NCBI GenBank assembly: GCA_963765765.1
Contig: CAVXYC010000021.1
Span: 60,591 to 124,590 of the forward strand
Length of the DNA: 64,000 nucleotides
Origin: an uncultured Chloroflexia bacterium
GTDB lineage: Bacteria; Chloroflexota; UBA6077; JACCZL01
Direction of reading: 5' to 3'
The translations under genes and the position numbers were made by a program. Under the pieces are notes generated by a model that saw only the letters and a list, made by a program, of their open reading frames with translations, was not told the DNA's origin and ran no database searches. Below are positions 48,927 to 54,785 of this stretch, one piece after another. Numbering within the stretch: the first letter of the stretch is position 1; each line of letters opens with the position of its first letter.

Positions 48927-49093
48927 CGTGAAGCACCTCTTTTCATCGCGAACGCCGTTACTGGTACGGCGAATACTCCTGTAGCGTAGCGCAAACTCTG
49001 GACTGGTGCGGACAATTTGCGATAATGGAGCATGTACCAAATTACACACGGTGCGTCTCTCTGGAAACGCTGACCGGTGCGGAATTGCAGGAA

Positions 49094-50140
49094 ATGACCG
49101 AATCAGTCCGGCGGCTCACCAGCTTCTCTCACGGCGCCGGTTGAGCGTGCAAGCTCAGCCCGGCTGAGCTGGTGCAGGTGCTGCGCCACATCCCCCAATC
49201 AATCGATCCACGCGCCCTCGTCGGAGTGGGCACGCGGGACGATGCCGCCGTTTACAAGCTGACGGATGAGCTCGCAATCGTTGCAACGGTCGATTACATC
49301 ACCCCCGTTGTGGATGATCCGTACGCCTTCGGCCAGATCGCGGCCGCCAACGCCCTGAGCGACGTGTTTGCCATGGGTGCCGAGGCGTTGTTCGCGCTCA
49401 ACGTTGCGAATTTCCCGCGTGAGGCGCTGCCGCTGGAGCAGCTTGGCGACATCATTCGCGGCGGCGTCGATAAAGCGGCGGAGGCCGGCGTGGCCGTACT
49501 CGGTGGCCACACCGTGGATGACCCCGAAATCAAATATGGCATGAGCGCCATCGGCATGGTGCACCCCGAGCGAATTATTCGGAACGTCGGCGGCCAGGCC
49601 GGAGATAAGCTTGTGCTCACCAAGCCCATCGGCACCGGGGTCGTCACCACCGCTATCAAAGTCGGTGCGGAGACCGAAGAACAGCGCGAGGCGGCAGTTC
49701 GTTCGATGTCCATGCTCAATCTCGGCGCCGCTCGGGCAATGCTCGCCGTGGGCGTGCACGCCGCCACGGACGTCACGGGCTTCGGGCTACTGGGCCATCT
49801 CTCTGAAATGCTGACGGCGTCGTCGATCGACGCCACCCTATGGGCCGATCAGATCCCACTTCTTCCGGGCGTACGAAGCCTGGCAGAGGAGGGGGCGATT
49901 CCGGGCGGTTCCCGCAGAAATCTGGATGCATTAGGCACGGTGATTCAGTGGGATTCCGATCTTACGGAGCTCGATCGCCTCGTGCTATGCGACGCACAGA
50001 CATCGGGCGGTATGCTGATGGCGGTCCCGTCGGGGCTGCTGGATGCGCTCCTTCATGAGCTCCAGCAGGAAGGCGTCATTGTCGCGGCCGTCATCGGGGA
50101 GCTTCAAGATGGTGCGGGGCGCATCCACGTTCACCGTTGA
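49094..50140 (+). CDS. selD: Selenophosphate synthetase SelD/SenC, selenocysteine-containing (Sec17)
   Basis: MTESVRRLTSFSHGAG-TGA-ACKL is in frame with ORF 49172-50140; DDAAVY, TVDYITPVVDDP, AANALSD, GGHT, DVTGFGLLGH, DAQTSGG. Confidence 0.95.
49169..49189 (+). promoter_or_regulatory. Bacterial SECIS-like hairpin
   Basis: ggtgcag-gtg-ctgcgcc stem-loop with a G-led loop 33 nt after the UGA, resembling the GCAGGUCUGC apex of the E. coli fdhF SECIS; a second hairpin lies at 49152-49170. Confidence 0.65.
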
Positions 50141-50361
50141 ACGTGTCCGGCAATCATTCGCACGCCCACCCTGCAATTGTCCCGAGCTCAGGATTACAGC
50201 ATGACTCCGGAGTGCATCGAACTTTGAACCGCAGAAGGCTAGCGCCAGCTCTCATTCCTGGCGTTCAAAGAGTGATATGTGGGATGCGGCGCGTCGCACT
50301 CAATCTCGACCGTTAGGAACGACCACTGACGATTACCAGTCGCGCTCAAGAGACCGAAGAC

Positions 50362-51129
50362 GTGGCATCCACCGGTAGCGTTCCCGTTATCACCGCGGAT
50401 GGGCTCGGAAAGCGCTACCCAAACGGGGTCGCCGCTCTTCGAGACGTCTCGATAACCGTCCGAGCCGGTGAAGTCATTGGGCTTCTCGGTCGGAGTGGAA
50501 GTGGCAAGACCACCCTCTTCCGACTGCTGGTCGGCGCATTGCGACCAACAAGCGGCCAGCTCTCTGTGCTTGGCGCCGATGTGTCCATGGCGCATGGTGC
50601 GTCGCTGCGGGCCCTCCGCAGGCGAATCGCCTGGGTAACGCAGCAACACAATCTCGTCCCCAGTTTGTCAACCGCTCACAACGTCCTACTCGGACAGATC
50701 GGACGTGAGCCGTTGTGGCGCGTGCTGCTCCAATTGTTGTGGTTGCCCGAGCGTGACCGGCGCGCGGCATTCGACGTACTCAACGAGCTTGGAATCGCCG
50801 ATAAGCTCTACGAACGAGCAGACGATTTGTCGGGCGGACAGCAGCAGCGGGTGGCCGTGGCACGGGCGATTCTCGGGAAGCCGGAGCTCGTTCTGGCGGA
50901 TGAGCCGGTCGCTTCCGTGGATGCTCGAACGGCTGAAGAGGTACTGATGGCCCTCTTGCGGCTCAACGCCCAGCACGACGCCACGGTGTTGTTGAGTCTC
51001 CATCAACCCGAGGTGGCGCTTCGATTGTGCCCACGCATCGTGGTCCTGGAGCGCGGGTCCATCGTCTTTGACGGTCCCCCTGAGCGGAATCGATCAGGGG
51101 CGACTCTATCAGCTTGCCGACGATACTGA
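50362..51129 (+). CDS. PhnC-like ABC ATP-binding protein (C-terminus probably extends to about 51187 via an indel)
   Basis: GRSGSGKTT, QQHNLVP, NVLLG, LSGGQQQRVAVARA, LADEPVASVD, SLHQ. Confidence 0.9.
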   Translation: MASTGSVPVITADGLGKRYPNGVAALRDVSITVRAGEVIGLLGRSGSGKTTLFRLLVGALRPTSGQLSVLGADVSMAHGASLRALRRRIAWVTQQHNLVPSLSTAHNVLLGQIGREPLWRVLLQLLWLPERDRRAAFDVLNELGIADKLYERADDLSGGQQQRVAVARAILGKPELVLADEPVASVDARTAEEVLMALLRLNAQHDATVLLSLHQPEVALRLCPRIVVLERGSIVFDGPPERNRSGATLSACRRY

Positions 51130-51146
51130 CACGGAGGAGGAGCGTA

Positions 51147-52099
51147 GTGCAGAACGCGCGGAGCTATACCCAGCGCCCAACATTTGAAGATGTACGGGGG
51201 CCGGGCTTTAGCGCCATCAATTTGGTCCTCGCGCTCGTTATCGGCGGCGTGGTGGCCGTTTCGTTCCAGCAGAGCCACGTATCCATCACCGAGCCGTTTA
51301 CCGCGCAGAATGCCAAGAGTGTCGCCCGGTTCGTTTCGGGGCTGTTTCCTCCCGCGACGGCGCCCGACTTCCTGCAGGGCATCGGCGGACTCATCCTCGA
51401 GACGATCTGGATCTCCATCGCAGGAACGGTGATTGCCTTTGTTCTCGCTGTGCCGCTGGCGCTTGGCGCTCTGCGGACGCGCGGTGAAGAGACCTCGATG
51501 CGGGCGGTGGGGCTCCCGAGCTGGCTGCTGCGCTGGACCGTTTTCGGCGCATCGACGGCTCCTGTTGAATCTTGGCCGAGCGATTCCCGAGCTTGTCTGG
51601 GCACTGGTCTTTGTCGTCTCCGTCGGATTGGGTCCCTTCCCCGGTGTCCTGGCGCTCGCCGTCCACAGCGCGGGTGTCCTTGGGAAGCTGTATGCGGAGA
51701 TGCTCGAGTCCGTGGACCAGCGGGTGGTGGAGGCTTCGCGCGCCACCGGAGCCACGGAAGGCAGCGGTCACGCTGCTTTCCCGTATCCCGCTGGCGTTGC
51801 CAACCCTGCTCTCCTATACGCTCTTCCGCTGGGAGTGCAATATGCGCGCGGCCACCGTGCTGGGGTTCGTTGGCGCGGGCGGCATCGGTACGCAGCTGGG
51901 CATCAGCATGAAGCTGTTTCGCTATGACGAAGTACTCACATTGGCCATCGGCATCTTTCTCCTCGTGACGCTGGTTGACCTGGTCGGTAGCATCATTCGG
52001 GCTCGGATTCTGGATACCCCAACCATCACCTGCTCACCGCAGGACCAGCCCGATTTGCCCAATCGCACCACCGGCGCGTTCGGTCGAGCGGAGGGCTAG
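51147..52099 (+). CDS. PhnE/PtxC-like ABC permease (two frameshifts)
   Basis: LFPP, ETIWISIAGT, RAIPELVWALVFV..VGLGPFPGVLALAVHSAGVLGKLYAE, RWECNMRAATVLGFVGAGGIG; RBS ggaggagg before the GTG. Confidence 0.88.
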
Positions 52100-52102
52100 C
52101 AG

Positions 52103-53474
52103 ATGCAGCTCGATCGCCAACGCTCGAGTACACGTACACGTACACGCACTCGCAGCTCAGATGCTCTTTCCGATCTGCGTGAGGCCCGCCAACGCACCCT
52201 GGAGGTCATTTCCGACCTTTCGGATGAACAGCTCATGGGTCCGATGCTGCCCATCGTCAACCCACTTCGCTGGGAGGTTGGGCATCTCGGCTGGTTCCAG
52301 GAGCATTGGCTCCTGAATCATTTCAGCGGTGAGCCACCCATCCGCGAGGATGGCGACGCGCTCTATGACTCGATGAAGGTCCCGCACGATGCCCGCTGGG
52401 ACCTGCCACTTCCCACGCGCGAGGAGACGCTGGCGTACATCCAGCGCGTGTTGGACCGAGTGGTCGAGGAGCACGATTCCGGGCGGCTATTGAGTCGCAC
52501 CGCCTCAGACGAGTTTGATGGCCAGTACTTCCTGCGGCCTCGCGCTGTTTCACGAGTGCATGCACGCCGAGGCATTCACCTACACGCGGCAGACTCATGG
52601 ATACCCAGCACCCAGAATGGGAACCGAGCGACGCCGGCCCATGAGTGACCCAAACCGACCGGCCGCGTCACTTGGTGACGCGACAATTCCCGGCGGGACG
52701 ATCAAGCTGGGCGGGCAACAGGGCCGAGACTTTGTCTTTGACAATGAGCTGACCGGATGCGAAGTGCACGTCGACCCGTTTTCGATCTCGCGGACCGCGG
52801 TCTCCAACGGCGAGTTTCTTGAATTTGTTCAGGATGGCGGATACCTCCACCGAGAGCTGTGGGGCGATGACGGCTGGCGCTGGCTGCAACAGGCGGGACT
52901 CGAGCATCCTCGCTACTGGAGGCGGAGCTCTGAGGGCCAGTTTGAACGTCGGGATTTCGACCGCTGGGGGCCATTAGAGCTGGCCCTGCCCGTACTTCAT
53001 GTCAATTGGTACGAGGCTCAGGCTTACTGTCGCTGGGCGAGGCGTCGATTGCCGAGTGAGGCCGAGTGGGAGATGGCGGCCACCTGTGAGCTGGCGCCCG
53101 ACGGACAGAGTCTTGCCGCCCGTAAACGCATCTATCCCTGGGGTGACGAGGCGCCAGATAGCGAGCGCGCCAATCTCGACTGGGAACAGGGCGGCTGTGT
53201 GGACGTCGACGCACTGCCCGAGGGTGATAGCGCATTCGGGGTGCGTCAGCTCATCGGGAATACGTGGGAGTGGACCTCGTCGACCTTCGAGGCGTTCCCC
53301 GGATTCGTGGCGCACCCGTACGACGACTATTCACAACCCTGGTTCGGCGATCACATGGTGCTCCGCGGAGGATGCTGGGCCACTCGATCCAGTCTGATTC
53401 GGGCCTCATACCGCAATTTCTACAAACCCGATCGAGGTGACGTGTGGGCCGGCTTCCGCACCTGCGCACGCTAG
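52103..53474 (+). CDS. senA: Selenoneine synthase SenA (EgtB homologue; +1 indel near 52537)
   Basis: VNPLRWEVGHLGWFQEHW, LYDS..VPHDARWDLPLP, LFHECMHAEAFTYTRQT; FGE-type domain RLPSEAEWE, GNTWEWT, LRGGCW, GFRTC; adjacent to senB and selD. Confidence 0.88.
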
Positions 53475-53580
53475 GCTGAATCCGTACAGGTTTCCATCGC
53501 CCGTCGGGCGAGGTGCGGGTTATACCCCATCACAGTACGGGCAATCGCGGTCACGTTGGCTTGATCTCGAGGCCGCACTG

Positions 53581-54603
53581 ATGCCACGGACTGAGCGGCG
53601 AGTTCGGTCCAGGCGCATTGGCATCGTCACTCCAGCGCCTCCCAGAACCCAATACGGCAATCGCATCACCGCCTTACGCTGGGCTCGGCAGCTCCGGACT
53701 CTCGGACATCGGGTGGAGATCGCGTTGAGCTACGAAGGTCAAGATTGGGATGTCCTGCTGGCGCTTCATGCCCGTCGCAGCCACGCATCGATGCATCGCT
53801 TTTCACTCGAACGCCCGGGCCGACCAATCATTCTGTCCTGGACGGGAACCGATCTCTATCAGGATCTGGACAAGAGCGCGGAGGCGTGGGAGTCGATGAT
53901 GCTCGCGAATCGGATGATCGTGCTCCAGGCTGAAGCACTCACGGTCCTTCCAGAAGCCGTACGGCACAGGGCGCATGTGGTGTACCAGTCCGTGACACTG
54001 CCGCGCCGCGCCGCTGAGGCAGCCATTGATCCGGCGCGATTCTCCGCTCGAGATCGGTTTGACGTCATGGTGGTCGGCCACATCCGGGCAGTCAAAGACT
54101 CTATGCGCACCGCGTTGGCCTCCCGCCTGTTGCCGCCTTCCAGTCCCCTGCGCGTATTTCATTGCGGTGCGATCATGGAGGAGCCTTACGTGCCTCAGGT
54201 GCAGGAGGAGCTGGCAGCCAACCCACGGTACCGCTGGCGGGGAGAAGTTCCGCGCTGGCGAGTGATGAGAATGTTGGCTCGGAGCCAGCTCTTCGTTCAC
54301 ACCTCGCGGCTGGAAGGTGGCGCCAATGCCCTCGGGGAAGCGCTGGTGGCGGGTATCCCGGTGCTTGCGTCCGACATACCCGGCAATGTCGGCTTATTAC
54401 AGGCGGACTACCCCGGACTATTTCCCGTGGGCGATACGCGCGCACTTGCGGAGCTTATGCAGCGTGCCGAGATGGACCGCGATTTTCTCCTGGATCTACG
54501 CGATCGCTGTCTCGAGCAGCAGCCAAGATTCACTCCCGAGCATGAGCGGCAAGGCCTGGCAGCGGTGCTCGCCGTGGCGCTTGATGAAGCTGGTCAACAT
54601 TAA
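53581..54603 (+). CDS. senB: Selenosugar synthase SenB (GT-B glycosyltransferase)
   Basis: IVTPA....GN..TA.RW, ALHARRS, TGTDLY.D, VGH.R..KD, SRLEGGAN...EA, SDIPGNVGLL..DYPGLF.VGD. Confidence 0.9.
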   Translation: MPRTERRVRSRRIGIVTPAPPRTQYGNRITALRWARQLRTLGHRVEIALSYEGQDWDVLLALHARRSHASMHRFSLERPGRPIILSWTGTDLYQDLDKSAEAWESMMLANRMIVLQAEALTVLPEAVRHRAHVVYQSVTLPRRAAEAAIDPARFSARDRFDVMVVGHIRAVKDSMRTALASRLLPPSSPLRVFHCGAIMEEPYVPQVQEELAANPRYRWRGEVPRWRVMRMLARSQLFVHTSRLEGGANALGEALVAGIPVLASDIPGNVGLLQADYPGLFPVGDTRALAELMQRAEMDRDFLLDLRDRCLEQQPRFTPEHERQGLAAVLAVALDEAGQH

Positions 54604-54785
54604 CGCTGACGCTTGCTCGGGCGGTGCGCTTCTCGCATTAACCGAGAGTTAGCTGGTTGCATGCGGCAACACTGTAATGGCTCGCGCCCCGTACGCGGTC
54701 AGAGCGTCTCGATGACGCTCACACTTCGTAAGGTGCCGGCCGAAGCCATCAGCACGGAGCGTTAAGATCGGGTAGGGGAAACAAT

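Follow-up and report, generated by a model that had tools for sequence, protein, structure and literature searches.

The window analysed here is a stretch of 64,000 nucleotides (G000:C21:60591-124590, in which G000 denotes the genome studied), and coordinates given below without a contig name are positions in this window. On its + strand lie, in this order, selD, a gene for an ABC transporter ATPase, a gene for an ABC permease, senA, and senB. The selD gene carries an in-frame TGA at codon 17 that is followed by two adjacent hairpins, the second of which is a candidate selenocysteine insertion sequence (SECIS).

The selD gene and its reading frame

The selD gene (selenide, water dikinase; 49094..50140, + strand) comprises 348 residues plus the stop codon when read through its TGA codon 17. 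The frame that opens at ATG 49094 encodes MTESVRRLTSFSHGAG, followed by the TGA at 49142-49144 (residue 17) and then by ACKLSPAELVQVLRH, and contains no stop other than TGA 49142 before the TGA stop codon at 50138-50140. The list of open reading frames (ORFs) opens selD at GTG 49172 and ends it at the same stop codon (50138-50140), which gives 322 residues. An earlier note on this DNA had proposed that the frame from ATG 49094 crosses the TGA into the listed ORF, and that the ORF track truncates the gene. Both proposals hold: the frame from 49094 yields a SelD of 348 residues, compared with 322 residues from the start in the list.

The read-through product matches the selD family model TIGR00476 over its full length (387.9 bits; cut-off 125) and the model NF002098 (367.7 bits; cut-off 299), and contains both AIR-synthase domains (AIRS and AIRS_C). 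Its best match among solved structures is E. coli SelD (3u0o, residues 1-340; E 1.2e-78, phmmer). The product is thus assigned by sequence as a SelD, and ATP-dependent formation of selenophosphate is predicted for it. In the alignment with 3u0o, residue 17 falls on Cys17 and K20 on Lys20. The motif at the read-through site is U17-A18-C19-K20 (MTESVRRLTSFSHGAG-U-ACKL) and, as the earlier note had it, the UGA occupies the catalytic Cys/Sec17 position of a U-x-x-K motif. Cys/Sec17 and Lys20 of SelD (E. coli numbering) are essential. The SHGAG-x-x-C-K loop and Lys20 are common to the E. coli enzyme, which is of the Cys type, and to the G000 protein; the two differ at residue 17, which is Cys in E. 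coli and is encoded by UGA (Sec) in G000.

The start codon at 49094 is supported by G001, a genome of the same genus whose SelD is 83% identical to that of G000, since in G001 a stop codon lies 5 codons upstream of the equivalent ATG. The 16 codons ahead of the TGA encode the conserved N-terminus of SelD. In a six-frame profile search of G000, this gene was the only SelD above the family cut-off (381.6 bits, with 1 TGA inside), and a search of the G000 assembly for selU gave no match.

Conservation of the TGA at codon 17

A protein search of G000 and 40 relatives (41 genomes) yielded 34 strong SelD matches (E ≤1.5e-76, 47-100% identity) from 32 of the 41 genomes, G000 counted; two genomes (G020 and G024) have two strong copies each. 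Each of the 34 has a single in-frame TGA, and none is present in the weak matches (E 1.2e-17 or worse), which belong to other proteins of the AIR-synthase family. One unpublished genome (G006) supplies 1 of the 34 strong matches, 1 row of the alignment A1 described below, and 1 of the tRNA-Sec matches, and the conclusions are independent of it.

A wider alignment to Cys- and Sec-type SelD proteins, as the earlier note had suggested, covered 80 SelD loci of species-representative genomes, the closest named of which (59% identity) belong to metagenome-assembled genomes labelled Chloroflexota or Dehalococcoidia. The residue-17 codon is TGA at 52 of these loci, TGC at 24, and TGT at 4. Sec codons are typically recognised in this way, by an in-frame TGA that shares one column with Cys codons inside a conserved catalytic loop. 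TGA 49142 is strongly supported by this comparison as the selenocysteine codon of the only selD of G000, from which we infer the insertion of Sec itself.

These alignments also bear on two other readings of the codon. Taken at face value, the plain ORF list implies that translation ends at the TGA and that the gene product is a SelD of 322 residues, starting at GTG 49172 and shortened at its N-terminus. Such a protein would have lost the loop with residues 17 and 20 (Cys17 and Lys20 of E. coli); moreover, the 16 upstream codons are conserved as protein, the TGA is present in 34/34 strong matches, and Cys codons occupy the same column at 28 of the 80 wider loci. We consider this truncation very unlikely. 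Alternatively, the TGA could be a base-calling or assembly error for TGC or TGT in an assembly that is visibly error-prone for indels. The errors seen are, however, indels and not substitutions, and the same TGA occurs in 33 other strong SelD matches from 31 other genomes, the 83%-identical G001 included, which makes such an error hardly credible. The best public sequencing runs carried 0.20-0.30 of the sampled words, and all of their contigs stem from related soil populations; the runs placed on 49000-54700 gave no usable cover of 49142 and neither confirmed nor refuted the base call there.

The selenocysteine decoding machinery of G000

A Sec-containing SelD depends on SelA, SelB, and tRNA-Sec, and plain ORF finders truncate the genes of such proteins. 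The G000 assembly (33 contigs, 91.8% completeness, 6.85% contamination) contains an unbroken selA at C14:161612-162949 (555.5 bits, a 478-residue ORF with a SelA domain), which adjoins an unbroken selB at C14:159641-161521 (337.1 bits summed, a 641-residue ORF). The SelB protein comprises an EF-Tu GTPase domain, a SelB β-barrel, and the domains SelB-wing_2 and SelB-wing_3. A formate dehydrogenase alpha gene contains a second in-frame TGA, at C15:219819; its context is QARI-U-HSSS, the usual Sec position of formate dehydrogenases. This gene has a single hairpin with an 8-bp stem and a GUC loop, the stem of which starts 11 nt after the UGA.

The earlier note had called for a search for selA, selB, and selC, and its outcome was divided: selA and selB are intact on C14, and the 91.8%-complete assembly contains no canonical selC. 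Among the 33 contigs, no canonical tRNA-Sec (RF01852) was found, and the best match (47.7 bits) was a tRNA-Ser(gct) according to ARAGORN. A blastn search of G000 with the selC of G001 gave nothing longer than 21 nt, and the best hit of an nhmmer profile built from the selC genes of 30 relatives had an E of 0.11 and lay at a tRNA-Ser. By comparison, 33 of the 40 relatives, G001 included, have tRNA-Sec matches of 62-76 bits. Homologues of the gene that flanks selC in G001 are located at C20:868039-869507 and C15:308836-310185 of G000, and no tRNA follows the C20 site. Most simply, selC would be located in sequence that is missing from the G000 assembly.

The only tRNA-like gene with a UCA anticodon, designated tRNA-SeC(tca) by ARAGORN (C15:168062-168147), was rejected as selC. 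The Rfam tRNA-Sec model has no match on its strand, a tRNA-Leu(taa) on C20 is 90% identical to it, and the anticodon of its counterpart in G001 is still taa. The gene has two acceptor-stem mismatches and a weakened D arm, and is, judged by its sequence, a decayed copy of tRNA-Leu.

A tRNA-like gene with a UCA anticodon in an assembly that has no selC could suggest that UGA 49142 is read by a tRNA other than tRNA-Sec, either this tRNA-Leu derivative on C15 or near-cognate Trp or Cys tRNAs. Against this stand the two acceptor-stem mismatches, the weakened D arm, and the 90% identity to tRNA-Leu(taa) of the C15 gene, together with the taa anticodon of its G001 counterpart; in addition, Leu at the catalytic position would inactivate SelD, and the Sec machinery (selA and selB) is intact. 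Decoding by such a tRNA appears exceedingly improbable to us.

Two hairpins follow the UGA codon

Hairpin 1 (49152-49170, + strand) has an 8-bp stem and a CCG loop (-11.7 kcal/mol), and lies between the UGA and hairpin 2, which it directly precedes. Hairpin 2 (49171-49187, + strand), the candidate SelB-binding SECIS, has the sequence GGTGCAG-GTG-CTGCGCC, which forms a 7-bp stem with a GUG loop (-9.4 kcal/mol); the loop begins 33 nt past the last base of the TGA. The earlier note had pointed to exactly this arrangement, a hairpin 33 nt after the UGA with an 8-bp hairpin ahead of it, and both elements are present at these positions. Both are also contained in the minimum-free-energy fold of 49142-49200 (-23.7 kcal/mol). 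The energy of this fold is within chance (z = -1.64; 16 of 200 shuffled sequences fold as well). The earlier note had suggested folding this segment against the bacterial SECIS model, and hairpin 2 fits the published consensus described below. Since the fold energy is unexceptional, the case for the hairpins is comparative and not thermodynamic.

Alignment A1 comprises 31 sequences of 54 nt, each beginning at the TGA and each from a different genome; of the 34 strong matches it omits the G016 copy and the second copy in each of G020 and G024. In this alignment, 94.8% of the cells of the two-hairpin structure are paired, a share that drops to 28-38% once the 3' partners are displaced by 1-3 columns. 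Two-sided changes affect five pairs, and none of 500 shuffles reached either the covariation score or the percentage paired. For hairpin 1, 92.7% of the cells are paired and 3 of the 8 pairs change on both sides; these two-sided changes occur in at least three lineages (L028, L087, and five sequences of the f4 family), and the register of the hairpin is shifted in L089 and L092. For hairpin 2, 97.2% of the cells are paired. Compensated changes affect 2 of its 7 pairs and are confined to the f4 clade, where a synonymous change in an Ala codon pairs with an Arg-to-Gly change. Because the relatives are not independent and part of the covariation stems from the f4 clade, these changes represent few separate events.

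The wider loci, from outside the order, serve as a second and cleaner control. Hairpin 2, in the same register and with at least 6 of its 7 pairs, is present at 25 of the 52 TGA-type loci and at 2 of the 28 Cys-type loci among the 80 loci. Coding constraints of the peptide alone therefore do not explain the pairing.

According to the legend of Fig. 2 of PMC13188914, the bacterial SECIS (bSECIS) consensus has (i) a loop of 3-9 nt; (ii) a stem of 4-16 bp; (iii) a G in the first two loop positions; (iv) a spacing of 16-37 nt between the UGA and the loop; and (v) a minimum free energy of at most -7.5 kcal/mol. Hairpin 2 falls within all the ranges of this legend (3-nt loop, 7-bp stem, GUG, 33 nt, -9.4 kcal/mol). 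Hairpin 1 falls outside them, with no G in the first two loop positions and a spacing of 15 nt. The selD spacing is thus close to the maximum of the model in this legend, and a second, conserved hairpin that itself lies outside the consensus occupies the gap. The formate dehydrogenase hairpin of G000 (8 bp, GUC loop) fits the same legend.

The 5' arm of selD hairpin 2 opens with the same GGUGC as the formate dehydrogenase hairpin, and because of this shared element hairpin 2 is read as a putative SelB-binding element. Hairpin 1 would then be a conserved structured spacer. Rfam searches gave no match for the whole window at gathering thresholds, and only chance matches (mir-7143, HDV ribozyme, and glmS) for 49080-49280 at E values up to 10; therefore, no curated model covers the selD element.

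The genes downstream of selD

The selD gene is separated by a spacer of 221 nt, within which no terminator-like site was found, from the gene for the PhnC-like ABC transporter ATP-binding protein (50362..51129, + strand). This protein matches PF00005 with 122.5 bits and TIGR02315 with 240.1 bits, the latter below the cut-off of 266.1, and is 78% identical to its G001 orthologue. The PhnE-like ABC permease gene (51093..52099, + strand) is spread over three frames, with an extra base near 51555 and another near 51763; in a tblastn search, the intact 345-residue permease of G001 matches it in three collinear pieces in frames 3, 1, and 2. The gene for the selenoneine synthase, senA (52103..53474, + strand), occupies two frames, with an extra base near 52536. 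Its N-terminal piece matches NF041186 with 115.1 bits (profile positions 9-117) and its C-terminal piece with 361.4 bits (130-382), so that each piece alone is below the cut-off of 420; SenA of G001 is intact, with 449 residues. The gene for the selenosugar synthase, senB (53581..54603, + strand), follows selD on the same strand at a distance of 3.4 kb and matches TIGR04348 with 348.7 bits (cut-off 300). Its start is uncertain: the longest ORF begins at GTG 53437, and ATG 53581 fits the start in G001. A copy of egtD is located at C20:126627-127532 (TIGR03438, 354 bits; cut-off 290.9) beside an EgtB-like gene, and hercynine should therefore be available.

The scan for regulatory sites found one promoter-like site (48999-49026) and five terminator-like sites, numbers as expected from shuffled sequences. 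None of the five lies between selD and the ATPase gene, and since the consensus scan performs at chance level it is evidence neither for nor against an operon. The selD and sen genes presumably share a transcript, and the genes downstream of selD may be subject to polarity. In G018, senA follows selD within about 35 nt.

The same cluster is present in G001, with an additional gene for a periplasmic binding protein between selD and the ATPase gene. This gene is absent from the G000 cluster, and a copy with 74% identity lies at C15:311793-312686. The arrangement in G000 is not a misassembly, because it also occurs in a contig of run X4, from a related soil population, that covers 50012-50430.

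Frameshifts in the permease gene and senA

Relative to G001, G000 has one extra base near each of 51555, 51763, and 52536, and at each of these three positions a contig of run X4 (93-98% identical) lacks one base. As a control, all 100 ORFs of at least 250 residues from 153,407 bases of G001 were compared with G000, and 47 had a best G000 match of at least 60% identity. Twelve of these 47 match G000 in more than one frame; 2 of the 12 are genes of the sen cluster, and 1 (L193) is probably paralogue noise. An EF-Tu-like gene on C20 is also split, and rpoC is intact. The G000 assembly thus carries frequent single-base indels, and apparent pseudogenes in it are therefore untrustworthy without reads.

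These data bear on a further reading, in which the Sec trait is decaying in this strain: selC would have been lost, UGA 49142 would terminate translation and leave the cell without SelD, and the sen and transporter genes would be becoming pseudogenes. It is consistent with the assembly having no selC, with the three 1-nt insertions that G000 shows over a stretch of about 1 kb in the permease gene and senA relative to G001 and the X4 contigs, a density above the assembly average, and with the missing binding-protein gene between selD and the ATPase gene. However, selA, selB, and selD are without frameshift or extra stop, the frameshifted genes remain open and 74-90% identical to G001 within each piece, frame changes occur throughout the assembly (12 of the 47 orthologous ORFs), and the assembly is 91.8% complete. 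Because frame changes are this common, indels are favoured over local decay, and the three downstream frameshifts are probably assembly indels. We judge decay of the Sec trait to be unlikely.

Occurrence of SenB and its proximity to selD

Of the 41 genomes (G000 and its relatives), 8 contain SenB; the figures are 8/39 for the order and 8/401 for the genomes sampled in the phylum. It lies beside a TGA-type selD in G000, G001, G012, G018, and G087. In G023, G029, and G031, a search of the 12-14 kb surrounding senB gave no SelD, and each of these genomes has one strong SelD match elsewhere, which is of the TGA type. No SenA or SenB was found within 7 kb of the 80 wider SelD loci (E below 1e-20).

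The senB genes of G018 and G087 (71% identical in protein and 72% in DNA) have an in-frame TGA at the same column, downstream of which the sequence is well conserved. A 6-bp SECIS-like hairpin with a CGUGC loop is present in both, the loop being located 20 nt after the TGA, and in one of its pairs both bases differ between G018 and G087. The other six SenB sequences have R, M, L, or F at this column. Among 79 metagenome relatives of SenB that cover the column, none has a TGA there, and most have R, Q, or K. Since the column is variable, it is not a Cys/Sec column, and it was rejected as such. The TGA in these two genes may represent Sec, another kind of read-through, or a shared defect.

Discussion

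The region 49094-50140 very probably encodes a Sec-type SelD in which UGA 49142 is read as Sec17, hairpin 2 directs this decoding, hairpin 1 serves as a spacer, and the product is shared by SelA and SenB/SenA. In the mechanism that we propose from the gene content and the alignments, UGA 49142 would be decoded as Sec17 in the N-terminal, glycine-rich selenium-binding loop. The stem-loop at 49171-49187 would bind SelB carrying Sec-tRNA(Sec) and most likely directs the decoding, and the hairpin at 49152-49170 would act as a structured spacer. The selenophosphate made by SelD would pass to SelA for the synthesis of selenoproteins (SelD itself and formate dehydrogenase) and to SenB/SenA, which are encoded just downstream, for the predicted synthesis of selenoneine. 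Selenophosphate would serve these two users because this SelD is the only one in the assembly and the gene content includes both. The proposal of the earlier note that one enzyme supplies both Sec and selenoneine agrees with the genome, which has one SelD above the cut-off together with selA, selB, senB, senA, and egtD.

The selD gene of G000 is a real and ordinary addition to a well-known selenoprotein family. The Haemophilus influenzae enzyme is the classic example of a Sec-containing SelD. As in other bacterial Sec-type SelD proteins, Sec would lie in the N-terminal flexible selenium-binding loop, at the position of the Cys of other SelD proteins, with a SECIS stem-loop inside the coding sequence just downstream. 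Nothing in G000 is different in kind; what it adds is the extra conserved hairpin, with 33 nt from the UGA to the loop, and the selenoneine cluster.

In the sen cluster, as presented in part of a preprint (bioRxiv 10.1101/2022.04.13.486033), the SelD homologue SenC lies beside the TIGR04348 glycosyltransferase SenB and the EgtB homologue SenA, and a putative selenium transporter is encoded nearby in a subset of the clusters. G000 likewise has a SelD homologue with SenB, SenA, and transporter genes. The characterised SenC of Variovorax was produced in E. coli like any ordinary protein, and the same part of the preprint makes no mention of a Sec-type SenC (bioRxiv 10.1101/2022.04.13.486033); the G000 SelD, in contrast, is of the Sec type, is the sole SelD of its assembly, and occurs alongside selA and selB. 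Being the sole copy and co-existing with selA and selB, it is therefore not a dedicated second copy. No paper in the literature searched combines selenoneine, senC, and UGA; the supplements of this preprint may list clusters with a Sec-type SelD. Two features appear mildly new: the sen clusters of this order would rely on a Sec-type SelD that selenoprotein synthesis uses as well, and the putative SECIS would have a two-hairpin layout, in which an additional conserved hairpin separates the UGA from the SelB-type stem-loop.

Synthesis of a Sec-type SelD requires the selenophosphate that the enzyme itself makes, and a positive loop is therefore inherent. Autoregulation of SelD is an old idea, which reportedly goes back to the 1990s and to a 1996 paper on selD homologues. 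The earlier note had suggested that the whole cluster could become responsive to selenium through positive feedback or polarity. A stronger version, in which selenoneine synthesis in this lineage is translationally gated by selenium, is conceivable although doubtful. The sole SelD, itself a selenoprotein, heads the sen cluster, so that the pathway would run only with working Sec decoding, and in G018 and G087 the UGA in senB would be a second dependent step; if so, SenB would be a previously unrecognised selenoprotein or a product of programmed read-through.

An annotation of selD in G000 should place the start at 49094 and record a translation exception at 49142, because a gene model without these omits the catalytic loop of the genome's sole SelD. 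For the biology of this group of soil bacteria, the comparison suggests that the selenoneine genes depend on a Sec-type SelD that would also serve selenoprotein synthesis.

A second selenoprotein gene

The formate dehydrogenase alpha-type gene on contig C15 of the source assembly, G000 (C15:217426–220242, minus strand), is a second selenoprotein gene of this genome. Its in-frame TGA (C15:219819) lies in the context QARI-U-HSSS, and a hairpin with an 8-bp stem and the loop GUC begins 11 nt 3' of this TGA.

A tRNA-like gene on the same contig (C15:168062–168147, minus strand; L018:3063–3148 in the fetched locus) was called tRNA-SeC(tca) by ARAGORN. We rejected its identity as selC: the gene is a degenerate tRNA-Leu(taa) copy, sharing 90% identity with C20:72127–72211 and differing from tRNA-Leu(taa) by an A-to-C change in the anticodon, 2 acceptor-stem mismatches, and changes in the D-arm. 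The counterpart in the same-genus relative G001 retains the anticodon taa.

Gene content and reading frames of the selD–senB cluster

In G001, selD is separated from the ABC ATPase gene by a periplasmic binding-protein gene (298 aa; L032:7157–8053). In G000, the spacer from selD to the ATPase gene is just 221 nt (window 50141–50361), and the G000 copy of the binding-protein gene is isolated on C15 (311793–312686; 74% identity); the G000 selD–ATPase arrangement is spanned by a contig from X4, a public sequencing run covering a related soil population. In another relative, G012, a second EgtB/SenA-like gene (L091:5577–6800; 33% identity to G001 SenA) is placed between the TGA-type selD and senA-senB.

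Single extra bases at window positions 51555, 51763, and 52536, none of which occurs in G001 or in the X4 contigs, split the G000 ABC permease gene into 3 frames and senA into 2. Genome-wide, 12 of 47 orthologous ORFs match in more than one frame in G000, and the assembly is therefore indel-prone. An EF-Tu-like gene adjoining a tRNA cluster (C20:253894–254767, minus strand) matches the SelB/EF profile in 2 adjoining pieces, each with its own open frame, an apparent further frameshift in a core gene.

The senB genes of the relatives G018 and G087 carry an in-frame TGA (L093:10089 and L197:4060, respectively) in one shared alignment column, which is occupied by R, M, L, or F in other SenB sequences and by TGA in 0 of 79 metagenome relatives. 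The coding sequence 3' of this TGA is conserved. After the TGA comes a hairpin with a 6-bp stem and the loop CGUGC, in which 1 pair is changed on both sides between the 2 genomes. The TGA could represent read-through or selenocysteine insertion, or a shared defect.

Shape of the selD SECIS

The layout of 2 hairpins after the selD UGA, the second being the candidate SECIS, is absent from the TGA-type selD of Rokubacteria- or Methylomirabilota-labelled MAGs and of some Dehalococcoidia (L100–L107, L115, L132, L134, L141, L162, and L163). The selD in these loci has one longer hairpin, starting approximately 15–22 nt past the TGA. Therefore, the shape of the selD SECIS varies by lineage.
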